In this document: positions 1,439-18,032 of the stretch, one piece after another | Layout: every line of letters starts with the position of its first letter | How positions within the stretch are numbered: the first letter of the stretch is position 1 | Assembly (NCBI GenBank): GCA_965213925.1 | Contig: OZ243927.1 | Span: forward strand, 1,280,001 to 1,344,000 | Direction of reading: 5' to 3' | From: Trueperaceae bacterium | GTDB lineage: Bacteria; Deinococcota; Deinococci; Deinococcales; Trueperaceae | DNA length: 64,000 nucleotides | Notes under the pieces: model-generated | What the model was told of the DNA's origin: nothing | Databases searched by the model: none | Seen by the model: the letters and a program-made list of their open reading frames with translations, nothing else | Program-made: the position numbers and the translations under genes

Positions 1439-2395
1439 TCAGCGACCTCTCGCCTTCATCGAAAGCCGCTCTTTTTTCTCCACCTCGTCGGGGTTCATGA
1501 TGAGCAGGAAGTAGAGTGAGATGAGAACCAGCGGAACGCTGACAAGCTGCGTTAAGGTAAAGAGCCCTATGCCCGGCGCGTTCAGCCCTTCGGAGAGGTA
1601 GACCTGCCAGAAGAGCGGGTTGTCGCGAAAGGGCTCCTCTAAGACCGAGCGCAAGACCGAATACCACAAGATAAACTGCCACCAGGCGAAGCCCGGCGTG
1701 CGGCTTCTGCGAAACGACCACCAGACGATGCCGACCAAAATCACACCGATGACTGCGCCGTAAATCTGCGTGAGGTGAACGGGTCCGCGCAAGATTTCGC
1801 CGCCCTGCGCAACGCACTGTGAAAGGCTGACGCCCGAGATACTGCACGTCCCCGGATACGCCGCCCACAGGTTATCGCCGAACACGAAGCGTCCGAACGC
1901 GCCGAAGGTGTCCGTGCCCGGCTCGGGCCAGGTGTAGCCGATGGGCCAGCCCGTCAAGCGTCCGGTGGTATCCGAGCCGTTCATAAAGTTGCCGATGCGC
2001 CCGCCGATAACGCCCAATGCGCCCACCGGCGCGAGCGTATCCAAGTACGACCACATGTTGAGGTTGTGAATGCGTGAGTAGAGCCAGACCGCGACGAAAA
2101 TGCCTAAAACGCCCCCGTGAATGCTGCCGCCGCCCTGCCAAATCGCGAAGGCGTTTAAGGGGTTGCCGTTCGGTCCGAAGTACGCGCTCGGGCTCGTCAC
2201 GACGTAGATGAGGCGTGCGCCGATAAGCCCCGCGATAACGAGCCACAAGGTCATATCTAACAGCTTTTCCGTATCGAGATTGCGCCGCTCCGCTTCTCTC
2301 AGCGCCCAGCTCGAGCCAATCAGCACCCCTAACGCGATTAAAAAACCGTACCAGCGAACCGCGAGCGGTCCTAGTTGAATCATGATCGGGTCCAT
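1439..2395 (-). CDS. lgt: Prolipoprotein diacylglyceryl transferase
   Basis: MDPIMIQLGPLAVRWYG, IWQGGGSIHGG, GRIGNFMNG and HLTQIY motifs. Start moved to the ATG at 2395. Confidence 0.92.
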   Translation of the reverse strand: MDPIMIQLGPLAVRWYGFLIALGVLIGSSWALREAERRNLDTEKLLDMTLWLVIAGLIGARLIYVVTSPSAYFGPNGNPLNAFAIWQGGGSIHGGVLGIFVAVWLYSRIHNLNMWSYLDTLAPVGALGVIGGRIGNFMNGSDTTGRLTGWPIGYTWPEPGTDTFGAFGRFVFGDNLWAAYPGTCSISGVSLSQCVAQGGEILRGPVHLTQIYGAVIGVILVGIVWWSFRRSRTPGFAWWQFILWYSVLRSVLEEPFRDNPLFWQVYLSEGLNAPGIGLFTLTQLVSVPLVLISLYFLLIMNPDEVEKKERLSMKARGR

Positions 2396-2552
2396 ACCTA
2401 TACAATCCCTTCTTCGCGGTTCTCGTCCGGTTGACCCGGCGAAACCACAGCGGCGCATCCGCAGCGCCAAACCCACCTAGTATATTAGGATTTTAGTCGC
2501 GAGGTATAAGGGTTGTTTAAGAAGTTACCGCGGGTGCTGTAGGAAGGATCGC

Positions 2553-3602
2553 TTATGTGAGATTCGGCAAGGGTAGCCGCGTCACCTTAACAGCGCTGAT
2601 GAGGAGGCGGATACCAACCTCTTGTAAGTAGGCGTCGGCGCGGGGCAGTGCGCCCCAGGCGACGCCGCGCTGCCACACGAAAGAGGTTATCTCTCTACCT
2701 AGCTCGTCCTCGAGCCTCTGGAGCGCGCCCACGCTCTCGAGCCGCAAATCATTCCTCGCGTCGTACGGGTCAGCGTGCGTCATAGTGTGACAGGTGAAAG
2801 CGTGTCCTTGCGCCGCTAAACCGCGCACCTCGTCCCAAGTGAGAGCGAGGCGTCCGTCTTCGTACTCGAGCGGGTCCACGTCGATTTCGTGCGCGGCGGC
2901 GAAACTGGCTTGTCCGTGAACAGGCGTGTCGATAAAGCCCGGAATAAGGCAGAATATGCCCGTTAAGCCTAGTTCACTAAGGAGCGGCGCGGCAACGTCA
3001 ATGTGGTTGCGGGTTCCTTCGTAAAACACGAGCAAGATGGGCGGACGCTCATCTGTCCAGGATTCGCCTGCTACGAGCTTTTCCAAATCCGATATGCCGA
3101 TGCTCTTAAATCGCTCTGCAAGCGCCCCGAGTTGCGCTCTGAGTTTGTCCTTATCTTCAGCAAACGTGTTGTGAAAGTTGACCGAGCGGACAAAGCGTCC
3201 GCTGCGAAGGGAGCGGATGAGATACGTGGTGTCTGTGTGTTCGTCCGGAGTCAAGTCCGCCGCCGAAGAGGTGAAACTTCGGCGTTCGAGCGGTGCGGCG
3301 TCCCGCCCGAAGTCATAAAAGGCGACTAGCTCGAGCGCCAACTGCAAGGCCCTGGCGGGCTCAGAAGTGAAACGCTGAGAGGTCAGCAGACGCGCTGTGA
3401 CCTCTTGAACGGCGCGAGCAGGCCTATAGTTCGCCGGGTCGATCGTGCCGGAGAGGTCTGCTTGACCGGGAGCGTTGAGGTCCTCGAATGCCAAGACCAT
3501 CTCGACGCCCTCCCTGGAATAGACGCGCTTGGCGAGACGCTCAGCGTGCGCCTTGGCGTTTTGAATGAGGTCGTCTAAGTCCATTGCTTTACGGCTTTTC
3601 AC
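2553..3602 (-). CDS. Polysaccharide deacetylase (NodB/CE4-like) with an approximately 100-aa N-terminal extension
   Basis: VNFH, LLVFYEG (variant of TFDDG), LTWDEVRGLAAQGH.F.CHTMTH and LEDELGREITSF. Overlaps the end of the YcaO gene. Confidence 0.75.
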   Translation of the reverse strand: MKSRKAMDLDDLIQNAKAHAERLAKRVYSREGVEMVLAFEDLNAPGQADLSGTIDPANYRPARAVQEVTARLLTSQRFTSEPARALQLALELVAFYDFGRDAAPLERRSFTSSAADLTPDEHTDTTYLIRSLRSGRFVRSVNFHNTFAEDKDKLRAQLGALAERFKSIGISDLEKLVAGESWTDERPPILLVFYEGTRNHIDVAAPLLSELGLTGIFCLIPGFIDTPVHGQASFAAAHEIDVDPLEYEDGRLALTWDEVRGLAAQGHAFTCHTMTHADPYDARNDLRLESVGALQRLEDELGREITSFVWQRGVAWGALPRADAYLQEVGIRLLISAVKVTRLPLPNLT

Positions 3603-5082
3603 CTAATGCGTAGCGTACTGCGTGTCGTGCGGGTTCTCGGTAGAGAGGGTAGAGGTCGCCCACGATCTCTTTCAATTTTTCGGCATCAAACCAAGCTTTA
3701 TCACCGAAACGAGCCTCGGCAGCGTCTGTCAAATAGATGCGTTTTGCACCTGGCGGCGGTGTGCCTAATCCGACGAGCGGGCTCTCTCGTGCCAGAAGTC
3801 GGCGCACGTTGCGCTCGCCGATGCGTCCATAGGAGGCGGTTTCGACTTCCAAACCGGGAATCACGACCTTAACCGCCCTGACGCCCTGCTCCCTTGCTTG
3901 GGGGGTGGCTAGCTCGAGGTACAAAATGTCAAAACCCTCTAAACGCTTGGCGACCTCTTGCAGCCGCGTTTCAGGGGTTGCGTTTGCTAAGTCGGGATGC
4001 TCCGGTAGCGTTCCGAAGGGGATACGTTCTTGTTCTTGGTAGATGGGCGTAAGCTCCGCTTTGAGTTCGGCAGGGTAGAGGTTGAGCCAGTGTTTCATGG
4101 TCTCGAGGGTTCTTTGCTCCTCGGTAACGTTCTGCGCGTGAGCGAAGTGGGCGTCTAAATAGCCTTCGGGTGAACCTTCTGCGACGTTTGCAAGAGGTCC
4201 GTGACTAAAGGCTAGACGTGCTCTCGAGAAAGCAAATTCTAAAAGCGCTTTACGGAGTGCCGCCGCACGGTCTAAGTCGCACGCCTCACCGCCCGCTGCA
4301 AGTTTAATCTGCGGCGCGTCGTCATCCGGTCCATAACCGTTCACATAGAGGTTGATAAGACCAAAGTCCCTTGCGGCGAGTTTGACGTTGACGGTGAGTC
4401 CCTCCTCTTCCAACCGCTCCAAAATCGCCTTAGTTGTATCAGGCACACCTTCCGAGAGGTCAAGTACGCGCCCTTGGTCGAGCGCCCTATAGTTCACGCT
4501 GTTGCCGTCGCGCTGCAAAAGCTCCAACGCGCCGTGGCAGAGACCTCTTGTGACGCTAAGACCTGCACCGAGACCATTGGAGACTGGGAGGAAAAGAGGT
4601 TCGTAGCCTTCGGGAAGTTCGGCGGGGCTCGAGGCGGCAGCCTCTAAGAGCACCCATTTCGACCCTTCTGGATAACGTTTCATGGAGACCCAGAAACGCA
4701 TCATATCTGCACTATAGCCACAACCCGTGTCCAGAGCGAGCGTCACGGGATTAACCACTGCGCCCGCGCCGTAAGTTACCACCAAATCGTGGTAAGAGCC
4801 TCGTTCTGTCTTTAGCTTCGGCACGACCCACAAGCTCTGCACTCGCTCGTGCAGTTCGCCGAGGGAGCCGACCTCAGCTTGGGCGTCACTAAGCCCATAG
4901 CCCGCGCCGCCGCCAAGAGGTCCGGGCAGAAAGGTGGACGCCCACGAATGAACGCCCGCCTGCTCAGCCGCGCTATCAAACCCGGTGATCAGAAAGTGAA
5001 AGAACGTGCCCTTCGGTAGTGCCGCTTTGTAGCGCTCTACGACCTCTTGGAGCGACACCTCTTGTTCTTCCTGCTGAGTCAC
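3589..5082 (-). CDS. YcaO-family ATP-dependent amide-activating enzyme
   Basis: GAGYG, GELHER, SNGLGAG, ALELLQRDG, KALLEFAFSR and VKVVIPGLE match YcaO motifs. No C-terminal PxPxP. Confidence 0.85.
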   Translation of the reverse strand: MTQQEEQEVSLQEVVERYKAALPKGTFFHFLITGFDSAAEQAGVHSWASTFLPGPLGGGAGYGLSDAQAEVGSLGELHERVQSLWVVPKLKTERGSYHDLVVTYGAGAVVNPVTLALDTGCGYSADMMRFWVSMKRYPEGSKWVLLEAAASSPAELPEGYEPLFLPVSNGLGAGLSVTRGLCHGALELLQRDGNSVNYRALDQGRVLDLSEGVPDTTKAILERLEEEGLTVNVKLAARDFGLINLYVNGYGPDDDAPQIKLAAGGEACDLDRAAALRKALLEFAFSRARLAFSHGPLANVAEGSPEGYLDAHFAHAQNVTEEQRTLETMKHWLNLYPAELKAELTPIYQEQERIPFGTLPEHPDLANATPETRLQEVAKRLEGFDILYLELATPQAREQGVRAVKVVIPGLEVETASYGRIGERNVRRLLARESPLVGLGTPPPGAKRIYLTDAAEARFGDKAWFDAEKLKEIVGDLYPLYREPARHAVRYALGEKP

Positions 5083-5954
5083 CCCTTAATGCCCGACATA
5101 GTGAGCCCTTTGACGTAGTAGCGTTGCAGCATTAAGAAGAGGATGGCTAACGGCACGGTGCTCACCGCTAGCGCCGCTTGCTGCAACGACTCGTCCTCGA
5201 TGTTGCCGAATGCGCCGCGCAAGAGGTAGATGCCGACGGGCAAGGTCTCTAAGTCAGGCGCGGAGCGGGTGATGGTCAGCGTCCAGATAAACTCGTTCCA
5301 CTGGTAGACGAAAACGAAGATGCCGAGCGTCGCCAGCGCAGGTTTGACGAGCGGCAAGACGATCTGCGCGAAGATGCGGAACTCGCTGCAGCCGTCGATA
5401 CGGGCGGCCTCGAGCAGTTCCGTCGGGATATTCACCATGAACTGCCGCATCATAAAGATGCCGTACCAGGTGATGAGAAAGGGTAAAATGAGCGCCGCGT
5501 ACGTCCCCAAGAGCCCCGTTCCTCCCTGACCCAAAACGCCGTTGCCGCCCGCCAGCGGAAAGAAGCGCATGATGAAAAACATCGGGATGAGAAAGAGGAA
5601 AAAGGGGAACATCTGCGCGGACAAGACGCTCCGAAAAAACCAGTTGCGCCCCCAGAACTGATACTTGGCGAGCGCGAAGCCCGCCATCGTGCTCGTTAAG
5701 AGCTGCAAAACGGTGATCGTTACGGTGACGATGGTGCTGTTGATGTACCACTTCTGTATTGGGAGGCTCTGAAAGACTTCCCGGTAGATGCTCCACTGCG
5801 GGTCGGAGGGCCAGAAGACGGGCGGCTGCGCGAAGCGCTCGGCGGGGGTGCGCAGTGCGCCCACGAACATCTCGAAAAAGGGCAGGAGCATGATCGCGCC
5901 GCCCAACACAAGGAGTGCATATTTGATCATGCTGCCTACTCGGTTGCTTATCAT
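5079..5954 (-). CDS. Carbohydrate ABC transporter permease (MalG-like)
   Basis: IPTELLEAARIDG EAA loop, multiple TM helices, C-terminal QRYYVKGLTMSGIKG. Confidence 0.93.
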   Translation of the reverse strand: MISNRVGSMIKYALLVLGGAIMLLPFFEMFVGALRTPAERFAQPPVFWPSDPQWSIYREVFQSLPIQKWYINSTIVTVTITVLQLLTSTMAGFALAKYQFWGRNWFFRSVLSAQMFPFFLFLIPMFFIMRFFPLAGGNGVLGQGGTGLLGTYAALILPFLITWYGIFMMRQFMVNIPTELLEAARIDGCSEFRIFAQIVLPLVKPALATLGIFVFVYQWNEFIWTLTITRSAPDLETLPVGIYLLRGAFGNIEDESLQQAALAVSTVPLAILFLMLQRYYVKGLTMSGIKG

Positions 5955-5966
5955 CGCGATCCCTTT

Positions 5967-6914
5967 CTAGTAAGATTCAATGCCGCCTCGCCTAAAAATC
6001 CGCAGTTGCACCAGCGTGATCAGAAAAATGATGACAAAGAGTATAAACGCTGCCGCTGCCGCGCGGCCCATGCGCAAATCCGTAAAGGCCATCTGGTACA
6101 TGTAGAGCGCGGTGACGTTCGTGCTCTGCACCGGACCGCCTCCGGTCAACACCAGGATGAGCGCGAACGAGGCTCCCATCGCGGAGATGAAGCTCGTGAT
6201 GCTGACGAAGAGCAGCGTCGGGCGAATCAGCGGAACGGTGACATGCCAAAACATCTGCAAGGTGTTTGCGCCGTCTACCTTGGCTGCGTTATAAAACGCA
6301 TCGTCAATTCCCTCCAAACCCGCCGAGAAGAGAATCATGTTTTGTCCCATGTAGTACCAGACCGCCACGATGATGACCGCCCACATCGCCACAGACGGGT
6401 CGCTCAGCCAGTTCGGTCCGTTGATACCGACCCAAGCGAGCACGCGGTTGATGAGCCCACCGTTGCCGTCCAAGATGAACTGCCACAAAAAGCCGATGGC
6501 GGCGACGTTGGTAATCATCGGCAGGAAAAAGAGCGAGCGCCACAACGCTCGGTAGCGGCTCTGTGTAAAAACGAAGGCGATGACGAGAGCCAACGGTACG
6601 CCGACGAGCACCGTGCCGAACGCGAAGACGAGCGTGTGCCGGAGCGACAAGAGGAACGTCGCGTCGCTAAAGAGGTAGACGAAGTTGTCTAAACCGATCC
6701 AGTTCGGCGCGGAGAGTGGGTTCCAGCGCGTGAAGGTGAGGTAGAGCGAAAAACCGATAGGGAGTAAGAAAAAGACGACGAAGAAGATAAAGGTGGGCGC
6801 GAGAAAGACGTAGGGAGCCCAGTCTTTTTGTTGGATGCGGCGTTTATTAGGAGGTTTAGACGCTACAGTGACATTCGCGTCTTTTGCCGCGTCGGATGTG
6901 GGTTTGGTTGTCAT
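5967..6914 (-). CDS. Carbohydrate ABC transporter permease (MalF-like)
   Basis: WIGLDNF, PNWLSDP and FYNAAKVDGA. Start taken at the ATG at 6914. Confidence 0.92.
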   Translation of the reverse strand: MTTKPTSDAAKDANVTVASKPPNKRRIQQKDWAPYVFLAPTFIFFVVFFLLPIGFSLYLTFTRWNPLSAPNWIGLDNFVYLFSDATFLLSLRHTLVFAFGTVLVGVPLALVIAFVFTQSRYRALWRSLFFLPMITNVAAIGFLWQFILDGNGGLINRVLAWVGINGPNWLSDPSVAMWAVIIVAVWYYMGQNMILFSAGLEGIDDAFYNAAKVDGANTLQMFWHVTVPLIRPTLLFVSITSFISAMGASFALILVLTGGGPVQSTNVTALYMYQMAFTDLRMGRAAAAAFILFVIIFLITLVQLRIFRRGGIESY

Positions 6915-7052
6915 AGAAGTGGATACGTGTGCATAGAAGTGACCTCGCTCGAGCTTCCTATTCCAAAGAGGTGAGTTCACATAGCGAAAGAGGATGCAAG
7001 TGAGAGTCTCGAGCCCTAAGCTCGAGACCTCTTCGTAGTACATTTCAGTGCG

Positions 7053-9116: not shown

Positions 9117-9641
9117 GTGAGGTGCTTTATCGCCCTGCCCCTACCCGAAGAGGTCAAGGCGGAGTTGCGGCGCGTTCAGAGTGTTTTAGCACCGCAACTC
9201 CCTGAGAGGGCAGTGCGCTGGACGAAGCCGGAGCAGTTCCATCTCACGTTGGACTTTTTGGGCGAGCTGTCAGAGAACGAGGTCGAGGGGGTTAAAGGGC
9301 GGCTCGAGTCCCTTCATTTCTCCGCGTTCACGCTCAAGCTGGGCGTAGTAGAGAGCTTCGGGCGTCCAGTGAGGGTGCTCTTCGTTGACATTGCCGGAGA
9401 GACCAAAACCTTACGCGAACTGCAACAAGAGGTCGCGCTCAGTGGGAGTACGCAGCGGTTTCACCCTCATTTAACGCTGGCGAGGCTGCGCACCTCTCTC
9501 CCTCATCTGCAAGAGGTCGCGCGAGAAACCCAAGTCGAGCCACTTGCTTGGCAGGTCGAAGAGGTTCGGTTGGTGCAGAGTACGCTCACCCCTCAAGGCG
9601 CACGCTATACGGTGCTGCTCGAGGTCGGGCTCAGTCCTTAA
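9117..9641 (+). CDS. thpR: RNA 2',3'-cyclic phosphodiesterase (2H phosphoesterase)
   Basis: N-terminal RCFIAL and two HxT motifs (FHLTL, PHLTLAR). Confidence 0.9.
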   Translation: MRCFIALPLPEEVKAELRRVQSVLAPQLPERAVRWTKPEQFHLTLDFLGELSENEVEGVKGRLESLHFSAFTLKLGVVESFGRPVRVLFVDIAGETKTLRELQQEVALSGSTQRFHPHLTLARLRTSLPHLQEVARETQVEPLAWQVEEVRLVQSTLTPQGARYTVLLEVGLSP

Positions 9642-9806: not shown

Positions 9807-9836
9807 AAAGAGCGACTTATAAGGTCGCTCTTTTTT
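9807..9836. terminator. Bidirectional intrinsic terminator between thpR and the small peptide gene
   Basis: AAAGAGCGAC-TTATAAG-GTCGCTCTTTTTT hairpin between convergent genes. Confidence 0.75.
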
Positions 9837-9860: not shown

Positions 9861-9989
9861 TTAACCACCCCAAGCGCTGCTTCTTCCGTCGGTCGAGGGT
9901 GACGAGCTTTGGTATTTGCCTGCGACGCTGGTGCCGAATCCGAGGCTCAAGAGGCTGACGGTGAGGGCGACGAGCATTTTCTTTTTCAT
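9861..9989 (-). CDS. Small secreted peptide, 42 aa (MKKKMLVALTVSLLSLGFGTSVAGKYQSSSPSTDGRSSAWGG); candidate signalling-peptide precursor
   Basis: Strong RBS (AAAAGGAGAGAATC-ATG), Sec-type signal peptide ending in SVA, and a terminator just downstream. The C-terminus matches the repeats in the neighbouring subtilase. Below the ORF-track size cutoff. Confidence 0.85.
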   Translation of the reverse strand: MKKKMLVALTVSLLSLGFGTSVAGKYQSSSPSTDGRSSAWGG

Positions 9990-10045
9990 GATTCTCTCCT
10001 TTTCGCGCCGGGGTTTCTTCCCTGGTTTGCTCTTATCTTAAAGAG

Positions 10046-10146
10046 CAAAGGTTGCTAAAGGGTTGCCAAAAAGGAGGCAAAAGGTTGCTTTTTTCGCACC
10101 GTCAAAAATAAAAAAATTCACAAGTTCAGCGCATGGCAACCTTTTT
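10046..10146. promoter_or_regulatory. Phased GGTTGC direct repeats plus one inverted copy in the divergent promoter
   Basis: GGTTGC at 10050, 10061 and 10083 (11-bp phase), a degenerate copy near 10073, and inverted GCAACC at 10136. A -10-like TAAGAT on the minus strand at 10040-10035. Confidence 0.55.
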
Positions 10147-10262
10147 GAACCGCACGGCCGGCGTGTGAGTTTTTTGTAAGAGGGCGTGCTCTAGGCTGAT
10201 GGGGCAGAAGTATCGGGTAGGGGGATAGCTTGAAACCAAGCCTCTGCCTCTAGGAGCGCTCT

Positions 10263-11939
10263 ATGTTCAACCGTCTTATCCTGTCAACCCCTTATACAAG
10301 GCGCGTGCTCTTGACGACTACGCTTGCGCTCTCGCTCGGCGGGTGCGGTCTCTCTCCGAGTGAGGACGCCCGTCCGCTCGGCGCTGACGTCCCCGATCCT
10401 CAGTACGCGCTCACCGTCGACCTCAGCGCCAACGATACGCTCACCGGTGTCGAAGCGGCGTATGGCGGCAAGGTGCTCGTCTGGGAGCCGGAAGCATTTG
10501 CGGTCGTAGGGGTGAACGAAAAAGTAGAGGGGCTACTCGAGACCAACGACGATGTCTTCTTGTTCGGTGGTGGGCGTGCGCGAATGGAGGGGCGTTCTTC
10601 CGCTTGGGCTGGTGGACGCTCATCCGCTTGGGCGGGCGGACGTTCTTCCGCTTGGGCTGGTGGACGCTCATCTGCTTGGGCTGGCGGGACCTACGCCTGG
10701 ATGCCTAAAAACACCTCCCTCTGGCAACAGGTTCGTCTGCAAGAAGGGCACGCGCTTGCTAGCAATTTGGGATACGGCGTCAAGGTTGCTGTTATTGATA
10801 CGGGCGTCGACCTCGAGCACCCGGCTTTAAGAGAGGCGTTAGCCCCAGAGAAAGAGTGGTGGGACTTCTATGACGGCGACGCCACGCCTCAAGAGGAGGG
10901 CGTTCTGGGCGAGGGAGGCTACGGACATGGTACCAACGTCGCGGGCATTGTCCGCCAAGTCGCGCCGCGCGCCACAATTCTTCCCATTCGCGTGCTCGGA
11001 CCTGGCGGCAGCGGCAACCTGACCGACGTCGCCTCGGCGATTCACTGGGCGGTGAAGATGAAGGCGGACGTCATCAACTTGAGTTTAGGGAGCGACGAAG
11101 AGGTCAAGGCGATCGAAGAGGTCATCGACACGGCGGTGAAAAAAGGCGTGCTCGTCGTCGCCTCGACGGGCAACACGGGCGACACGGCTGTGTCCTATCC
11201 GGCGCGCTCGGCGACGCGGGCAGAAACGGCTCCGGGGCGGCTCAGCGTGACGAGCGTCGATAACGCAGACGTCAAGTCCGACTTCGCGACGTACCGCGCT
11301 GAGGTCGAACTCTCCGCGCCCGGTGAGAACGTCTACAGTCCGGCTCCAGGGGAACGCTTGGCGGCTTGGAGCGGCACCTCGATGGCTGCGCCGATGGCGT
11401 CTGGCGCGCTCGCGCTCGCGCTCGGCGAGAAACTCAGCGTTAAGCGCAAAGAACTCGCCGAGGCGCTCAAAGCGCAAAGCTTTGACCTCTACGCCGAGGA
11501 AGATAACGCAGACTACGTCGGTCAGTTGGGCGAGGGGCGTTTAGACCTAGCTATCTTTTTAGAAGAGGTTGTCAAGCAGAAGAAGGGTAAAGGCAAAAAA
11601 GACAAAGACGAAGCAGGTCTCTCCTGCGAAGGAGGCGTAACGCGCCTGACGCTGCGCTATACGGGCTCGGATGATGAAGACATCCGCGTGGTCCAAAAGG
11701 ACGGCAAGGCGGTTCTCTTCGAGGGAGAAGTAGACCCTAATGAGACCTTCTCTTTTACGGGTGTTAAGGACGACGGCACGATGGGCAAAGAGATCACCCT
11801 TTACGAAGACGGTAAAAAGCGCGGCAAGTTGCGTACCGATTGCAAAAAACCCATCGGTCCTGGGTTGGTTGAGAAGAACTTCGAAGTGGTCTCTGGCGAG
11901 AGCTTAGGTGAACCGCTCGCCCCAGTGAGCAAAGAGTAA
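10263..11939 (+). CDS. S8 subtilisin-like serine protease lipoprotein with (GRSSAWAG)x4 repeats and a C-terminal Cys-flanked beta domain
   Basis: Lipobox LGGC; catalytic Asp in VAVIDTG, His in GHGTNVAG, Ser in SGTSMAAP; oxyanion Asn in STGN. Confidence 0.92.
   Translation: MFNRLILSTPYTRRVLLTTTLALSLGGCGLSPSEDARPLGADVPDPQYALTVDLSANDTLTGVEAAYGGKVLVWEPEAFAVVGVNEKVEGLLETNDDVFLFGGGRARMEGRSSAWAGGRSSAWAGGRSSAWAGGRSSAWAGGTYAWMPKNTSLWQQVRLQEGHALASNLGYGVKVAVIDTGVDLEHPALREALAPEKEWWDFYDGDATPQEEGVLGEGGYGHGTNVAGIVRQVAPRATILPIRVLGPGGSGNLTDVASAIHWAVKMKADVINLSLGSDEEVKAIEEVIDTAVKKGVLVVASTGNTGDTAVSYPARSATRAETAPGRLSVTSVDNADVKSDFATYRAEVELSAPGENVYSPAPGERLAAWSGTSMAAPMASGALALALGEKLSVKRKELAEALKAQSFDLYAEEDNADYVGQLGEGRLDLAIFLEEVVKQKKGKGKKDKDEAGLSCEGGVTRLTLRYTGSDDEDIRVVQKDGKAVLFEGEVDPNETFSFTGVKDDGTMGKEITLYEDGKKRGKLRTDCKKPIGPGLVEKNFEVVSGESLGEPLAPVSKE
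10590..10688 (+). repeat. Four tandem 24-bp coding repeats encoding GRSSAWAG
   Basis: Units such as GGACGTTCTTCCGCTTGGGCTGGT differ only at synonymous positions. Confidence 0.95.
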
Positions 11940-11967
11940 AAAACACCTTTTAGAAGGAGGAGAGTCT

Positions 11968-14010
11968 ATGTCCGCGCTAAGTCACAACTTTGCTGCTAGC
12001 TCTGTAACTGCGCCTGGAGCCGAAGTCGAAGAGTCGCTCGCTGACGCGGCGGCGGTGCTTGAACAGGACCCGGCGCGGACATTGGAGCTTGCTCACGGCG
12101 TACTCGGTGTATCGGCGAACCTTGCAGTGGCGGCGGAAGCCTCCTTGCTCATCGGCAAAGCGTACTATCAAAAGGGGCATTCAGCCGAAGCGCTGCGCCC
12201 ACTCCTTGAAGCCCACGCGCTGCTGACGGCTGAGGACGCGCAAGCCGCACAAAGCTCCCCGAGTGCGCTCGAGTGCGCTCTCATGCTAGGGCGTGCCCAC
12301 CGTGACCTTGCTCAGTTTGGCGACGCTGCGCGCTGGCTGGACGAAGCCTTAATATTGTCCCGAAGCATGAATAGCCCTTTGGAAGCCGAAGCTCTCAACC
12401 TCCTAGCGGGTGTAGTGGCTGAGAAAGGGGAGTACGGACGCGCGCTCGAGTATCTTAAAGACGCGCTCCCCATCGCCCAACGCCACGGCTTACGGGAGCG
12501 CCAAGCCAATATTTTCGACTACATCGGTCATATAGAATCCTTTCTCGGCAACTATCCGGGCGCTTTAGTGTCCTTGAAGCGAGCGTATGACCTGCTCCAA
12601 AGCGTCGCGCCAGGCTCGCGAAGTGCGATTGCCAACCTCATCAACTTAGGCAACCTCTACCAAGTCATGGGGCAAGACGAGCAGGCGCTCGCCTTTCTGC
12701 AGCGTGCGCGAAAGATTAGCCGCGCGGCGGAGGATACCGTTATGGAGGCGGCGGCGCTCAACAACTTAGCCAACCTCCATTACGACAGAAAGCAGTGGCG
12801 CGTAGCGCAAACTCGCTTCGAGGAGGCGCTCGAGCTTTCTCGTTACGTCAACAACCGGGCTTACGAAATCGACAACTTAGACGGTCTAGGACAGGTGCAA
12901 GTTGCACTAGGACACTTTGAGGACGCGCTCAAAACGCATAGGGCGGCGCTCTCTATCGCCAAGGATGTTGGCGATAGAGGAGGCGAGACGGACGCCCTAC
13001 TCAACTTGGGGCGGGACTACCTCGAGCTGAATCGTCCCGAACATGCGGCGCGCGCTTTAGCTGAAGGGCTCTCGCTCGCTGAGAACTTAGAACGTCTTAA
13101 ATCCGTCTACGAAGCGCACGAACTCCTCGCTAGGGCGTGTGAGGCGAACGGCGACCTGGCGAACGCGCTCTCCCACCAGCGCGAGTTTCACCGTTTGGAA
13201 AGAGCGCTTTTTAGCCGCGAGAGCGAGGAGAAGACGCGCCAGCTCACCGTGCAGTTCGAAGTCGAACGCGCCCGCCACGAAGCCGAAACGTACCGCTTGC
13301 GCACTCAGGTCGCGCAGGAGGCGCGGCGCGAAGCCGAAGCGGCCGTCGCGGAGCGCACCCTGGAACTCGAAGAGGCGCAGCTAGAGGTCGTCACGCGCCT
13401 CGCTCTGGCAGCGGAATACCGCGACGACGTCACCGGCGAGCACACGCGGCGCGTCGGCAGAAACGCCGCCGCCATCGCCTACGCTTTAGGCTGGTCCGAA
13501 GACGAGGTCAAGCTGATGTACACCGCCGCGCGGCTCCACGACGTCGGCAAGATCGGCATCAGCGACGCGGTTTTGCTCAAGCCCGATAAGCTCACCGAGG
13601 ACGAATTCGACCTCATCTGTCACCACACGGTGATCGGCGCGCGCATTTTGTCGGACGGGCGTTCGCAGCTTTTGCAGATGGCTGAAGAGATCGCCCTCGC
13701 CCATCACGAGCGCTGGAACGGGCAGGGCTACCCGTACGGGCTCGTCGGCGAGGCGATCCCCGTAACGGCCAGGATCGTCGCCGTCGCCGACGTGCTCGAC
13801 GCCCTCACGCATGAAAGGCCCTATAAAAAGGCGTGGTCCGTCGCGGAAACGCTCGCAGAGATCGAGCGGGGGAGCGGACGTCACTTCGACCCGCAGGTTG
13901 TGGCGGCGTGCTTGCGCGTCTTTGGCGAGGGTAAGCTTTCGCCCCTCGAGCCCCAAAGCCTAGCGGATACCTTGCGAAATTTATGCGAGGTGTTGGACAG
14001 GCGTTCCTGA
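11968..14010 (+). CDS. TPR-repeat + HD-GYP c-di-GMP phosphodiesterase
   Basis: About 400 aa of TPR-like helices (ALNLLAG, LINLGNLY, ALNNLANL, LDGLGQV, ALLNLGRDY), then EYRDDVTGEHTRRV, LHDVGKIGI and HHERWNGQGYP. No signal peptide or TM segment. Confidence 0.92.
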   Translation: MSALSHNFAASSVTAPGAEVEESLADAAAVLEQDPARTLELAHGVLGVSANLAVAAEASLLIGKAYYQKGHSAEALRPLLEAHALLTAEDAQAAQSSPSALECALMLGRAHRDLAQFGDAARWLDEALILSRSMNSPLEAEALNLLAGVVAEKGEYGRALEYLKDALPIAQRHGLRERQANIFDYIGHIESFLGNYPGALVSLKRAYDLLQSVAPGSRSAIANLINLGNLYQVMGQDEQALAFLQRARKISRAAEDTVMEAAALNNLANLHYDRKQWRVAQTRFEEALELSRYVNNRAYEIDNLDGLGQVQVALGHFEDALKTHRAALSIAKDVGDRGGETDALLNLGRDYLELNRPEHAARALAEGLSLAENLERLKSVYEAHELLARACEANGDLANALSHQREFHRLERALFSRESEEKTRQLTVQFEVERARHEAETYRLRTQVAQEARREAEAAVAERTLELEEAQLEVVTRLALAAEYRDDVTGEHTRRVGRNAAAIAYALGWSEDEVKLMYTAARLHDVGKIGISDAVLLKPDKLTEDEFDLICHHTVIGARILSDGRSQLLQMAEEIALAHHERWNGQGYPYGLVGEAIPVTARIVAVADVLDALTHERPYKKAWSVAETLAEIERGSGRHFDPQVVAACLRVFGEGKLSPLEPQSLADTLRNLCEVLDRRS

Positions 14011-14291: not shown

Positions 14292-17200
14292 ATGGCACGC
14301 ACCTACTACTTTCAACTAAAAGAAGACGACAGCTTAGAAATTCCAGTTTCGAGAGAGGCGCGGGAGCGCTACGGCTTTTCCGAAGACCTCTTCTCTGAGC
14401 ACGGCAACCTCATGCTCGCGGACTTTTCGGCCGCTCAGCGCGTGGCGCAGAGGATCAATGAAGTGCGCGATACGAAGCGCTACCCGCATTCAGCGGTCTC
14501 GGCGGGCGAACTCTACGCCGCCGGGCTCGTCCAGGAACTCTTGCGGCTCCTCGTCTCGCTCTACTTGCAAGAGACGGACGGCACTGTGGTCGAGCGGGCG
14601 TATGCTCACCTCGAGACGTCCCTAGGCGACGAGTTGGAGGGCACCTTAGAGCGCTACGCCCAAGACTTCCCCGCTAAGGTCGTCTATACGAATAAAAGGA
14701 CCATTAAGGAGTACCTCGCGGGTAGTTCCAAGAGCATCCCGCACCGCCAAATCGTCTTCGAAGGACTTTTGCTCCTGCGCATGGCGAACGAGAACCCGGC
14801 GATGGAGCGCTTCGTCGAACTTTTCGACGATGAAGGTCTGGAGCAGCACACCGTCTATAACGAGATCATCACGCAGTTGGAAACCTTCTTCGAAGATGAG
14901 CCCGGTTTCGGCGGCAAAAAGCTTTTAGACGTGCTGCGCGGACCCCTTCGTTCGCACCCGACCTCTTTGGACGCTCAGTTGGAGTATCTGCGCTCACAGT
15001 GGCCTGCGCTGAGCGAGGGACGTTTTTCTGGCTTGATGCGCCGCTTGATGCAGACTTTGGGCACCATCCAAGAGGAGCGCCGCGAGCGCTTCGGCGGCGG
15101 ACCCGGTCCGGCGCACGTCATCGACCCGAGAGCGGAATACGGCGTGACGGGCGCGTTCGAGCAGGTCGAGTACGAGCGCTTCTCGCCCGATTCGTCCTGG
15201 ATGCCCCGCGTCGTGATGCTCGCCAAAAGCACCTTTGTGTGGCTGGGGCAACTCTCGAGGTTCTACGGGCGCGACATCTCCCGCTTAGACCAAGTGCCCG
15301 ACGAAGAGTTGGACGAACTCGCTCGGCGCGGCTTCACAAGCTTGTGGCTCATCGGCTTGTGGGAGCGCAGCGCAGCCTCTAAAAAGATTAAAAACATGCG
15401 CGGCAACCCGGACGCGGTGGCGTCAGCCTACTCCCTGTACGACTACCAGATCGCCAACGATTTAGGCGGGCAAGAGGCGTACGACAACCTCAAGTGGCGC
15501 GCCTGGGAGCGCGGCATCCGCATGGCGTCGGACATGGTCCCCAACCACGTCGGCATCGACGGTCGCTGGGTCGTGGAGCACCCGGACTGGTTCTTGCAAC
15601 TGGGACACTCGCCCTACCCGAGCTACACCTTTAACGGACCTGACTTGTCCAACGACGACCGCGTCGGCATCTTCTTAGAGGACCACTACTACGACAACTC
15701 AGACGCCGCCGTCGTCTTTAAGCGCGTGGACTACCACACGAATAACGAGCGCTACATCTATCACGGCAACGACGGCACCTCGATGCCCTGGAACGACACG
15801 GCGCAGCTCAACTACTTAAACGCCGAGGCGCGCGAAGCCATCATCCAGACCATCCTGCACGTCGCGAGGCTCTCGCCCATCATCCGCTTCGACGCGGCGA
15901 TGACGCTCGCCAAGCGCCACATCCAGAGGCTCTGGTTCCCGGAGCCGGGCTCGGGCGGCGCGATTGCCTCGAGAGCGCAGTACGGCACGATGACGACAGA
16001 TGATTTCAACGCCGCCATCCCCGAAGAGTTCTGGCGCGAAGTCGTGGACCGCGTCGCCGAAGAGGTCCCCGACACGCTCCTCTTAGCCGAAGCCTTCTGG
16101 ATGATGGAAGGCTACTTCGTCCGCACGCTCGGGATGCACAGGGTCTACAACAGCGCTTTCATGCATATGTTCAAAGACGAGGACAACGCCAAGTACCGCA
16201 AATCGATCAAAAACGTTCTGGAGTTCGAGCCCAACATCCTAAAGCGCTACGTCAACTTCATGAGCAACCCCGACGAAGAGACCGCCATCGCGCAGTTCGG
16301 CTCCGACGACAAGTACTTCGGCGTCTGCACGGTGATGGTGACGATGCCGGGTCTGCCGATGTTCGGGCACGGTCAGGTCGAAGGGTTCGAAGAGAAGTAC
16401 GGCATGGAGTTCAAGAGCGCCAAGCGCGAAGAGAACCCTAACGGCTGGCTGATTGAGCGCCACTACCGCGAAGTGTTCCCGCTGATGCACCGCCGCGAGC
16501 AGTTCGCGGAGGTGGAGAACTTCCTCCTTTATGACGTGCATACTGAGAACGGCGTCAACGAGGACGTGTACGCCTACTCGAACCGCGTGGGCGACAGAGC
16601 CTCGCTCGTGGTATTCAACAACAAGTTTTCGCAAGCCAAAGGCTGGATCAAAGACGCCGCGCCGCACGCCACCAAAGAGGGCGGGATGCAGCCCTCGCGT
16701 GACCTCAAAGCTGGGCTCGGTCTCCGGGCGCACAATGACGACTTCACGATTTTCCGCGACCAGGTATCGAACTTGGAGTTCATCCGCCGCTCGGCGGGCC
16801 TTGCGAACGGCTTTTACTTGGAGCTGGAGGCGTTCAAATATCAAGTCTTTTTAGACTTCCGCGAGGTGGAAGACTATGACGGCAACTACGCCCGTATTCA
16901 CGACCAACTCGGCGGACGCGGCGTCGCTAGCATCGAAGAAGAGATTGCGTCCTTACGCCTGCAACCGCTCCACGAAGCCTTCCGCGAGGTCTTGAGTAAA
17001 GAGGTCATCCTCGGCTTGCGCGGCGTAGACCCCAAAGCGCAGAGCGAACTGCAAGCGGCGCTGCCGGAGCGCTATGCGCGGTTCATGGAGAAGACGAGGG
17101 ACTTCACCCCTGAAGACGGTGTAAAAGGGGAGACCGAACCGCTCTTAAACCGCTTCACCGTCGAACTCAGCCACCTGCTCCCGCTACCCTCGTTAGAGAC

Positions 17201-18032
17201 GCTTGCGCCCAAGTTCAAAAAGGGCGGAGAGGTCGAGCAAACCCTCTCCGATAACCTCACCCCAGAGATGAGCGGCAGCCTCTACGCCTGGCTTAGCGTG
17301 CACGGGCTCGGCCACTTTGCAGGCGACGGTTCGAACGAGGCGAGCTTAACGGCGCTGCGGCGCTGGCGCTTGGATAGGGTGCTCGAGGGTGTCTTTAGCG
17401 ACTTGGGCTTACACGCCGAGCGCGTGTTACACATGGTCAAACTCCTGGTGCGCTACAAAAACTGGTACGAGTTAGAGGACGAGGATAAGAAACCCGCCGA
17501 GAAACTCCTGGAACTCCTCCTAGACGACGAGGAGGCTTACGCCTTCTTAGGTGTCAACGAGCACGAAGGGGTGCGCTACTACAATAGGGAGTCCTACCGC
17601 GAACTCACCGCGCGCCTCGCCTGCGTCTCGATTCTCAATTTAAGCGTTTTGAAAGCAAAAGAGGTTGACGCGGGGCTGAAAAAGATTCACCAGGGACTTA
17701 AAGACTTCGCGGTGGCGGAAGCGCGCTCGGAGTACCAGGTGGATAAGCTTTTAGAGGTTAAACCAACGTCTAAAACGACGAAGAAAACAGCGAAGACCTC
17801 TAAGAAGTCAACGACGAAGAAGGCGGCTGCGAAAAAGCCTGCCGCAAAAAAGTTCACTAAAAAAGCCGATGCTGAAAAAGCGGATACTAAAACCGCGACG
17901 AAGAAAATAGCGACTAAGAAGACGGCTGCGAAGAAAACCAGCGCGAAGGCTAAGAAAGAGGAGGGGGGCTCGAGTAAGACTAAATCTGCCTCAACAGACA
18001 AAGAGAAATCCGCCAGCTCTTCGTCGGATTAA
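14292..18032 (+). CDS. Large GH13 alpha-amylase-family glycoside hydrolase with a Lys/Ala-rich C-terminal tail
   Basis: DMVPNH, IRFDAAM (nucleophile), LLAEAFW (acid/base), NPDE and TMPGLPMFGHGQ. Confidence 0.85.
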   Translation: MARTYYFQLKEDDSLEIPVSREARERYGFSEDLFSEHGNLMLADFSAAQRVAQRINEVRDTKRYPHSAVSAGELYAAGLVQELLRLLVSLYLQETDGTVVERAYAHLETSLGDELEGTLERYAQDFPAKVVYTNKRTIKEYLAGSSKSIPHRQIVFEGLLLLRMANENPAMERFVELFDDEGLEQHTVYNEIITQLETFFEDEPGFGGKKLLDVLRGPLRSHPTSLDAQLEYLRSQWPALSEGRFSGLMRRLMQTLGTIQEERRERFGGGPGPAHVIDPRAEYGVTGAFEQVEYERFSPDSSWMPRVVMLAKSTFVWLGQLSRFYGRDISRLDQVPDEELDELARRGFTSLWLIGLWERSAASKKIKNMRGNPDAVASAYSLYDYQIANDLGGQEAYDNLKWRAWERGIRMASDMVPNHVGIDGRWVVEHPDWFLQLGHSPYPSYTFNGPDLSNDDRVGIFLEDHYYDNSDAAVVFKRVDYHTNNERYIYHGNDGTSMPWNDTAQLNYLNAEAREAIIQTILHVARLSPIIRFDAAMTLAKRHIQRLWFPEPGSGGAIASRAQYGTMTTDDFNAAIPEEFWREVVDRVAEEVPDTLLLAEAFWMMEGYFVRTLGMHRVYNSAFMHMFKDEDNAKYRKSIKNVLEFEPNILKRYVNFMSNPDEETAIAQFGSDDKYFGVCTVMVTMPGLPMFGHGQVEGFEEKYGMEFKSAKREENPNGWLIERHYREVFPLMHRREQFAEVENFLLYDVHTENGVNEDVYAYSNRVGDRASLVVFNNKFSQAKGWIKDAAPHATKEGGMQPSRDLKAGLGLRAHNDDFTIFRDQVSNLEFIRRSAGLANGFYLELEAFKYQVFLDFREVEDYDGNYARIHDQLGGRGVASIEEEIASLRLQPLHEAFREVLSKEVILGLRGVDPKAQSELQAALPERYARFMEKTRDFTPEDGVKGETEPLLNRFTVELSHLLPLPSLETLAPKFKKGGEVEQTLSDNLTPEMSGSLYAWLSVHGLGHFAGDGSNEASLTALRRWRLDRVLEGVFSDLGLHAERVLHMVKLLVRYKNWYELEDEDKKPAEKLLELLLDDEEAYAFLGVNEHEGVRYYNRESYRELTARLACVSILNLSVLKAKEVDAGLKKIHQGLKDFAVAEARSEYQVDKLLEVKPTSKTTKKTAKTSKKSTTKKAAAKKPAAKKFTKKADAEKADTKTATKKIATKKTAAKKTSAKAKKEEGGSSKTKSASTDKEKSASSSSD

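Follow-up and report, generated by a model that had tools for sequence, protein, structure and literature searches.

Organization of the locus

The 64-kb stretch of contig OZ243927.1 from a Trueperaceae bacterium (hereafter the window, meaning the whole stretch of DNA that was analysed) carries three neighbouring genes that are the subject of this study: a 42-aa peptide gene on the minus strand, followed on the plus strand by an S8-family protease gene and by a gene for a tetratricopeptide repeat (TPR) protein with an HD-GYP domain. The peptide open reading frame (ORF; 9861–9989) is divergent from the protease gene (10263–11939), with a gap of 273 nt between them, and the TPR/HD-GYP gene starts at 11968, 28 nt past the protease stop codon. 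A terminator scan found no terminator-like site in this 28-nt gap. The features of the encoded proteins and of their relatives, as described below, indicate a module made up of a predicted lipoprotein pro-subtilase and a predicted cytoplasmic TPR sensor fused to a cyclic di-GMP (c-di-GMP) enzyme, which is of the HD-GYP type in the window. An earlier sequence-only reading of this DNA had pointed to a GRSSAWAG repeat just ahead of the protease catalytic domain and, 28 bp beyond the protease, to a cytoplasmic TPR array joined to an intact HD-GYP domain. Both statements hold up in the analysis of the two proteins.

Anatomy of the protease and its repeat cassette

The protease is a 558-aa protein (10263–11939, plus strand) matching Pfam Peptidase_S8 (PF00082, 4.3e-44). 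Its N-terminus reads as a lipoprotein signal peptide (10263–10346), with the lipobox LALSLGGC ending at Cys28, a residue that is invariant across 52 aligned family members. This lipobox, read from the sequence without a dedicated predictor, and its invariant cysteine mark the protease as a putative bacterial lipoprotein. The catalytic domain spans residues 171–404 (10773–11474). Residues D179, H222 and S373 are found in the subtilisin order and occupy invariant columns of the family alignment, consistent with a Peptidase S8 fold and its Asp-His-Ser triad. A C-terminal beta-rich domain at residues 459–547 (11637–11903) is indicated by strands in the AlphaFold2 (AF2) model and by a weak match to DUF7467, which at 24.1 bits is below the curated cut-off of 27.

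The AF2 model of the window protease has a mean predicted local distance difference test score (pLDDT) of 85.9. Its best structural match is the unautoprocessed pro-subtilisin E (PDB 3whi), with 418–420 aligned columns and a template modelling (TM) score of 0.77–0.79 on the target. Because the model aligns to 3whi, residues ~41–109 (10383–10589) are assigned as a subtilisin-type propeptide, modelled as docked on the catalytic domain in the manner of an I9-type propeptide; the pLDDT is 92–97 over residues 41–100. The propeptide is followed by four tandem GRSSAWAG units at residues 110–141 (10590–10685), and then by a pseudo-unit, GTYAWMPK (10686–10709), that is in register with the repeats and contains the last tryptophan before the mature enzyme. 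Thermitase and subtilisin BPN' match the protease at ~1e-34, and their alignment places the mature N-terminus at about residues 142–148, right past this last tryptophan. BPN' residue 22 is aligned to query residue 169, so that a mature N-terminus near residue 148 is expected. The junction to the mature enzyme is probably W146|M147, and the WMPENT block is kept across the protease family.

The AF2 model of the window protease is confident up to W115 in the first unit, falls to a pLDDT below 50 at residues 116–143 and recovers at residue 144. The model of P0020, a Calidithermus protein that is 58% identical, remains ordered as far as W134, in the first canonical unit, then has low confidence at residues 135–162 and is ordered again from residue 163. 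According to these models, the cassette sits at the propeptide/mature junction.

Conservation and variation of the repeat unit

The search for related proteases gave 4325 matches among 8000 scored candidates, and the family figures reported here refer to the best 120. Where relatives are named, they come from Trueperaceae, Calidithermus or Deinococcus. In 118 of these 120 proteins, the region ahead of the catalytic domain has two or more period-8 units that fit the pattern G-x-S-x-x-W-[AS]-G; one of the two exceptions is N-terminally truncated and the other has period-7 units. The 118 proteins display 71 distinct majority units. Positions 2, 4 and 5 vary (entropy of ~2.6 bits), and G1, S3, W6, A7 and G8 are conserved. 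With the tryptophan taken as P1, this corresponds to conserved Gly at P6, Ser at P4, Trp at P1, Ala/Ser at P1' and Gly at P2', with P5 and P3 free to vary and P2 limited to aliphatic residues. The S1 and S4 subsites dominate the specificity of subtilases, and the conservation pattern of the unit fits a predicted subtilase cleavage site. The cassette thus fits the description of an autoprocessing site that is repeated and has Trp at P1, given its position at the junction, the conservation at P6, P4, P1, P1' and P2' and the variation at P5 and P3.

For comparison at the level of whole loci, 18 other Deinococcota loci were considered. Four of them, L001–L004, are the Deinococcota family members from a genome scan with the protease alignment, in which the matches listed were mostly generic S8 proteases; the other 14, L081–L094, lie on Deinococcus megaplasmids or secondary replicons. 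Across the module the cassette consists of 2–6 tandem copies of units of 6–8 residues. The distant Deinococcus members have periods of 6–8, with the units GKISMWAG, GVRAWAG, GLGVWGD, DGSRWWA, GYNAWSS and GARPIWIW. Two tandem S8 paralogues with differing units are found in L004 (5773–8510), L089 (2827–5388) and L094 (4054–6528); the L089 paralogues carry four GYNAWSS units and five GSFGAWA[TS] units, in this order.

Pairwise comparison of the codons of the units gave 21 synonymous and 0 nonsynonymous differences in the window, 15 and 0 in L002, and 18 and 0 in L081. The corresponding numbers are 21 and 4 in L004, with alternating F/Y, and 47 and 5 in L087. Among orthologues, one unit is present in two copies that both read SRIIW in L001, SRSIW in L082 and SRGTW in L083; the two copies have changed jointly yet differ synonymously. 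Recent DNA slippage alone is insufficient to account for this, because identical units differ synonymously and the copies have changed together. Judging from these codon comparisons, the peptide sequence of the unit, including its species-variable positions, is held uniform by selection within a protein.

The TPR/HD-GYP protein and conservation of the partner

The TPR/HD-GYP protein has 680 residues (11968–14010, plus strand), and inspection by eye shows neither a signal peptide nor a membrane segment. Residues 1–410 (11968–13197) form a TPR array, with six stretches matching Pfam TPR_12 (2.4e-43) and an additional match to TPR_MalT. The closest solved TPR structures are those of the peptide-binding LGN/Pins proteins. 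The array is followed by a coiled linker and the HD-GYP domain (13198–14010). HD_5 is matched at residues 484–644 (2.4e-32), covering positions 9–170 of the 170-position profile, and the motifs LHDVGK and HHERWNGQGYP are readable. The HD-GYP structure 4mcw in the PDB is matched at 3.8e-49 and a relative specific for cyclic GMP-AMP (cGAMP), 5z7c, at 6.6e-35. With both the HD and the GYP motifs present, the domain is predicted to be a phosphodiesterase acting on c-di-GMP or cGAMP. A complex prediction for TPR residues 1–410 (3-row alignment) with protease residues 100–150 scored 0.01 relative to a mark of 0.32, which counts neither for binding nor against it.

Of the 18 other Deinococcota loci, 16 have, beside the protease, a TPR protein to which Pfam assigns a c-di-GMP enzyme domain. 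The array is combined with HD-GYP in L002, L084, L086, L091 and L094 (the L084 protein is annotated short, and that of L094 is cut by the end of the locus) and with HD-GYP plus GGDEF in L001, L081, L082, L083, L085 and L089 (split by a transposase in L085). The combination is with GGDEF plus EAL in L087, L090, L092 and L093, and with GGDEF in L088, where the gene is upstream of the protease behind an IS630 element. The output domain is thus swapped between loci and the TPR array is constant. Mean identity is 26% for the TPR arrays versus 47% for the proteases. The distances between the protease catalytic domains and those between the TPR arrays are correlated, with a Mantel r of 0.75 for 15 pairs that was reached in 0 of 2000 permutations. 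L003 and L004, which lack a partner, L088, whose protease is degenerate, and the truncated L084 are left out of this set. Strain QL22 has two paralogous modules, L083 and L093, and each of them falls with its own partner type.

Taking these loci together, the conserved core is the repeat cassette of the protease with the cytoplasmic TPR/c-di-GMP-enzyme protein, not the small peptide. The proposal that the three genes represent a conserved and undescribed association is supported by this pairing, and also by the 14-member peptide family described below.

Many of the Deinococcus copies are on megaplasmids, beside transposases. In L085 (Deinococcus radiodurans, NZ_OV024759.1, 1411–9796), a transposase splits the partner, with the TPR array on one side and HD-GYP+GGDEF on the other. 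An IS2621 insertion in DR_A0342 is reported for D. radiodurans ATCC 13939K (PMC11219805), and the split partner of L085 matches this insertion. The kynurenine-pathway genes kynU and kynA are upstream of the protease in the same locus. In L082 (1–4571, Deinococcus psychrotolerans), and in this one locus only, genes for an oligopeptide-type ATP-binding cassette (ABC) transporter (a substrate-binding protein and two permeases) and an Xaa-Pro peptidase are immediately upstream of an IclR gene and the S8 gene.

Related loci in other phyla

Nine related loci outside Deinococcota were examined. In five of them (L006, L007, L012, L037 and L066, from Acidobacteriota, Chloroflexota and Pseudomonadota; genes at ~2100–7000 in each), a CHAT-domain protein without a signal peptide is encoded directly upstream of the S8 gene. 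Four of these partners are TPR-CHAT proteins, and that of L037 is assigned as CHAT only by Pfam. The S8 proteins of the five loci have 1–3 Trp units at the propeptide junction, and their genes come after that of the 930–1040-aa TPR-CHAT protein. Common ancestry of the sensors was considered and set aside: the best BLASTP E value between the window TPR array and L012 is 0.032, which reflects generic repeat similarity. A gene for a 140–210-aa protein without a Pfam match precedes the TPR-CHAT gene in L006, L007, L012 and L066, not in L037, and L006 has an extracytoplasmic function (ECF) sigma gene downstream.

Related S8 genes of other phyla have one unit at the junction, for example RRHSAWAIGG or RRRTSWAGG, and some Acidobacteriota S8 genes have 2–4 units. 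The single unit found at this position in other phyla suggests an origin of the cassette from one ancestral site that was amplified.

The small peptide gene and its family

The peptide gene (9861–9989, minus strand) encodes the pre-peptide MKKKMLVALTVSLLSLGFGTSVAGKYQSSSPSTDGRSSAWGG. The sequence AAGGAG, a strong ribosome-binding site, is found 6 nt ahead of the ATG. By eye, the n-region of the pre-peptide contains KKK, a hydrophobic core follows, and the cleavage site reads S-V-A|G, with the cut predicted after SVA at residue 23. The predicted mature part is 19 aa long, and its C-terminal end is one repeat unit, GRSSAWGG. The G+C content at third codon positions (GC3) of the ORF is 0.70, the same as in the neighbouring genes. 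The codons of the motif are GGA AGA AGC AGC GCT TGG in the peptide and GGG/GGA CGT/CGC TCT/TCA TCC/TCT GCT TGG in the protease units, the serine codons being AGC in the former and TCN in the latter.

Composition predicts 0.2 seven-mers with at most one mismatch from RSSAWAG for the six reading frames of the window, and exactly one such near-match was found outside the protease, in the peptide ORF. With 0.2 expected and one seen, the match by itself is only mildly unlikely and is weak evidence. The ORF is regarded as non-random because the match has a C-terminal placement in an ORF with a signal peptide, 273 nt from the protease, and because 13 homologues end in a like manner. A word-based search found three peptides besides that of the window. 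An exhaustive profile search gave nine matches, of which seven were peptides of 42–46 aa; the other two, P0128 (710 aa) and P0130 (624 aa), were dropped from the family as long, repetitive proteins with low-complexity matches. With the profile-seeded search the family reached 14 peptides of 42–50 aa, including that of the window. All 14 have an MKKK signal peptide, a variable spacer of ~10–18 residues and one unit, followed by the stop codon, and in each of them the unit closes with Trp and two further residues. Their tails read RSSAWGG, SSSAWAG, RSNAWAG, RSSAWAG, ARAWAG, RSNVWAG (twice), YSAWSD, RSNIWAG, RSSIWSG, VCAWAG, RSRLWAG, RSSVWAG and RSGLWAG.

On this evidence the 42-aa ORF is a real gene for a predicted secreted pro-peptide, a conclusion for which the homologues are decisive, with the ribosome-binding site and GC3 in addition. 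That the small ORF is not a gene and resembles the protease by coincidence is very improbable. The chance expectation of 0.2 near-matches per window leaves some room for it, to be set against the 13 homologous 42–50-aa peptides with their conserved signal peptide, variable spacer and common W-plus-two ending, as well as the strong ribosome-binding site and neighbour-like GC3; this explanation is nearly excluded and close to refuted. The sequence-only reading is therefore borne out in its description of a small ORF that ends in GRSSAWGG and has a ribosome-binding site and a Sec-type signal, and in its claim of a match at the protein level despite differing codons.

An exact protease unit, among the best 120 proteases listed, is identical to the tail in 9 of the 14 peptides (count by eye). 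This overlap appears to be a common vocabulary, not a pairing. Only two peptide/protease pairs are linked, that of the window and that of P0124 with P0012 (equal longest contig, 934,698), and both bear the same RSSAW variant. The peptides P0134, P0135 and P0136 have an equal longest contig of 1333 nt, and P0126 and P0129 have one of 921 nt. As judged only from these equal values, 1333 and 921, two or three peptide genes with unlike tails are probably present on one short contig.

A perfect 10-bp hairpin was found by an inverted-repeat search at 9807–9833, 28 nt past the peptide stop codon and between the convergent LigT-like gene (9117–9641) and the peptide gene. It is likely a transcription stop common to these two genes. 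Its T-run is on the plus strand only, and the terminator scan reported no minus-strand site at this hairpin. The terminator proposed earlier for the peptide gene is therefore retained as a hairpin past the stop codon, but it is not a canonical terminator for this gene, because of the strand of the T-run.

The divergent intergenic region and the surroundings in the window

The intergenic region between the peptide and protease genes (9990–10262) was examined by a repeat search. Boxes of the AAAGGTTGC type are present at 10047, 10058 (with one extra G) and 10080, and an inverted copy, GCAACCTTT, is at 10136–10145. The AAAGGTTGC/GCAACCTTT boxes may be an operator common to the peptide and protease promoters. 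A simple scan of 9990–10262 found no sigma-70-like promoter.

The neighbours of the locus in the window are housekeeping genes. A gene for Lgt is at 1439–2476. A c-di-GMP-II-GAG riboswitch aptamer (RF03169) is found at 419–504 on the minus strand with 44.4 bits against a gathering score of 40, from which it follows that the organism reads c-di-GMP via RNA too; the gene under its control lies at the window's left edge or past it. A YcaO cyclodehydratase-family gene (3589–5082, minus strand) overlaps a 349-aa ORF without a Pfam match (2553–3602, minus strand), both downstream of an operon for an ABC sugar-type transporter. The two could be a peptide-modification pair. At 14292–18032 (plus strand) a 1246-aa alpha-amylase-family protein is encoded, with a long C-terminal tail rich in Lys, Ala, Thr and Ser.

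Proposed mechanism and alternative explanations

From the established anatomy of the three genes, the cassette at the junction in the protease, the selection on and diversity of the units, the conserved pairing and the peptide family, we infer the following course of cleavage, release, uptake, binding and enzyme effect. A single autoprocessing site would have been multiplied into 2–6 tandem copies, which in the window are the four GRSSAWAG units, each with Trp at P1. Once exported and lipidated, the enzyme would fold on its propeptide, the first unit occupying the cleft of the active site. Cutting after each Trp would free the enzyme from the lipid-anchored propeptide and release identical octapeptides, AGGRSSAW. 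In the window lineage, the secreted 19-mer would be trimmed at the same Trp and join the octapeptide pool. The Trp-terminated peptides would then be imported and bind the TPR array, by which the HD-GYP domain would be switched and c-di-GMP altered. We consider this whole chain, with self-cut octapeptides and the small peptide read by the TPR sensor to set c-di-GMP, the best-supported explanation, with a chance that falls somewhat short of even.

Several observations weigh against it. No peptide homologue and no ORF with the local protease unit was found within ~4.5–6 kb of the protease at any of the 18 other Deinococcota loci. The peptide gene is therefore a lineage-specific addition of the sub-clade of the window, not part of the core, and the module does not need the pheromone gene proposed earlier. 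The earlier assignment of the small peptide as the pheromone gene of the module is accordingly given up, with the cassette taking its place as the conserved peptide element. The tandem peptide genes with unlike tails argue against a simple code of one peptide for one protease. In L003 and L004 no TPR partner was found, peptidase or amidohydrolase genes being the neighbours instead, and no gene for a peptide importer was found within the 64-kb window. All units of the run are identical in only 30 of the 118 proteins; the remaining ones mix 2–5 unit types, often, by eye, as an identical block between divergent first and last units. L091 (4354–4431) has four AGAFVT units without tryptophan at the same junction, so Trp is not absolutely required. 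It is noted as well that the Mantel correlation can be produced by common ancestry alone, and that the identity of the units could be explained by their fit to the enzyme's own subsites, with a receptor not involved.

The main alternative is that the repeats and the small peptide serve the protease only, and that the TPR/c-di-GMP enzyme is co-expressed with it and senses something else. The units could be multiple autoprocessing sites or decoys with a role in the timing of activation, in release from the lipid anchor or in competitive or product inhibition, and the two proteins could belong to a common programme such as matrix turnover when c-di-GMP falls. The location of the cassette at the junction with cleavage-site-like conservation is in keeping with this, as are the single-unit relatives of other phyla, which resemble plain processing sites, the peptidase neighbours of L003 and L004 in place of a TPR partner, and identical units that could track the subsites of the enzyme. 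However, it leaves unexplained why a cytoplasmic TPR protein with a swapped output is kept in 16 of the 18 loci, why paralogous modules have separate partners, and why variable positions are identical among units under purifying selection. We regard this explanation as somewhat unlikely. In another alternative, the TPR protein would meet the cassette or the pre-peptide in the cytoplasm before export. It would serve as a chaperone, or it would sense the secretion load and tune c-di-GMP accordingly, with no re-import. The TPR proteins without signal peptide or membrane segment, the 28-nt spacing of the protease and TPR genes without a terminator-like site between them, and the lack of an importer gene in the window agree with such an encounter. 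Direct support for it is absent, though, the Trp cleavage pattern is given no role, and a separate secreted 19-mer with one C-terminal unit is left unexplained, which makes it improbable in our estimate.

Adjacency of TPR-CHAT or CHAT proteins to related S8 genes in five of the nine loci of other phyla could also point to a conflict or defence system, or to a proteolytic cascade, in which a TPR sensor, a variable effector and the subtilase act together and the hypervariability of the units reflects an arms race. The hypervariable units themselves and the many Deinococcus copies on megaplasmids beside transposases are in line with this idea. Against it, PADLOC gives generic subtilase and TPR matches and a weak Cas3-HD domain match, with no system-specific model matched; the protease is exported as a lipoprotein and is thus no effector of the cytoplasm; and the window neighbours are housekeeping genes. 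A system of this kind has, in our view, a small chance of being the correct explanation. The same CHAT partners can be read in a wider form of the signalling proposal. The pro-subtilase would be a self-processing, multi-copy pheromone precursor throughout, with TPR sensors that drive c-di-GMP enzymes in Deinococcota and caspase-like CHAT proteases in Acidobacteriota, Chloroflexota and Pseudomonadota. Each activation would emit a fixed number of species-specific Trp-terminated octapeptides, and the 42-aa peptides would be extra or cross-talk signals. If true, it would mean a class of peptide-sensing receptors outside Bacillota and would connect a peptide signal directly with c-di-GMP for the first time. 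This general form is offered tentatively and is, on balance, unlikely.

If the proposed chain from self-cut octapeptides to c-di-GMP is correct, RRNPP-style signalling logic would extend to a diderm phylum. We know of no c-di-GMP enzyme that is gated by a peptide, and the chain would couple peptide signalling to c-di-GMP, the main second messenger of biofilm formation and motility. It would also represent a new way of encoding a signal, as tandem cassettes in the zymogen of the processing protease. Even if the repeats serve the protease only, there is still a large subtilase family with an amplified, fast-evolving autoprocessing site that is uniform per gene. Cultured carriers exist, including Deinococcus aquaticus, with GKISMWAG units, and D. 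radiodurans (DR_A0342 with the S8 gene just upstream), and D. radiodurans strain ATCC 13939K, with a partner gene split by an insertion sequence (PMC11219805), is a natural experiment.

Comparison with known systems

The literature search found no publication on the protease family, the cassette or the TPR/c-di-GMP pairing, of which supplementary gene lists may hold mentions, and no link of RRNPP to Deinococcus or to HD-GYP. The Meiothermus keratinase MtaKer was considered and rejected, being a different subtilase without the cassette (PMC5498600).

RRNPP(A) systems, the TPR-read form of peptide signalling, are described as a trait of Bacillota and of their phages and plasmids. The module resembles these systems (Rap/Phr, NprR/NprX, PlcR/PapR) in its Sec-exported pro-peptide with an informative C-terminus and in the nearby genes for extracellular subtilisin-type processing, predicted here, and for a cytoplasmic TPR receptor, here a candidate. 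A further likeness is the presence of more than one peptide copy per precursor, as in the cassette; some Phr propeptides hold tandemly duplicated pheromones (PMC11343458, PMC10075063). In contrast, RRNPP(A) receptors have a DNA-binding domain or act as Rap-type phosphatases or anti-activators, and the protein here is an HD-GYP, GGDEF or EAL enzyme. Here the processing protease itself contains the conserved source of peptide, the gene for the small peptide is lineage-specific and separated from the putative receptor gene by that of the protease, and the host phylum is Deinococcota. The likeness of the window TPR protein to RRNPP receptors is limited to generic TPR models. The module is not a member of RRNPP, because its output domain, phylum and in-protease peptide source differ and its putative receptor matches only generic TPR models. 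The RRNPP-like character that the sequence-only reading proposed thus stands as a resemblance in logic, an analogue at most.

The comparison with pro-subtilisins (3whi, BPN', thermitase) reveals a common propeptide and catalytic fold, an autoprocessing zymogen and a propeptide C-terminus predicted at the active site. Unlike in pro-subtilisins, a lipoprotein anchor is upstream of the propeptide, the single junction has become 2–6 near-identical, species-variable Trp units, and the gene is adjacent to that of a TPR signalling protein. The full-length HD_5 match with its HD and GYP motifs is shared with HD-GYP enzymes such as PmGH (PDB 4mcw) and those of the NosR-family NCBIfam model, although the window protein scores 124 bits with the latter, far under the cut-off of 400. 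The usual sensors of HD-GYP enzymes are receiver, GAF or similar domains, whereas the window protein has an array of ~400 TPR residues.

Multi-copy precursors cut by subtilisin- or kexin-type proteases are represented by yeast alpha-factor (Kex2), the fungal Kex2-processed repeat proteins and the cyanobactins (PatA/PatG). They share with the cassette the tandem identical units with a protease-recognition pattern between them, the selection for identity and the lineage-specific sequence. The units described here differ in being within the zymogen of the protease itself, with no modification enzymes nearby and with a TPR protein as the putative receptor.

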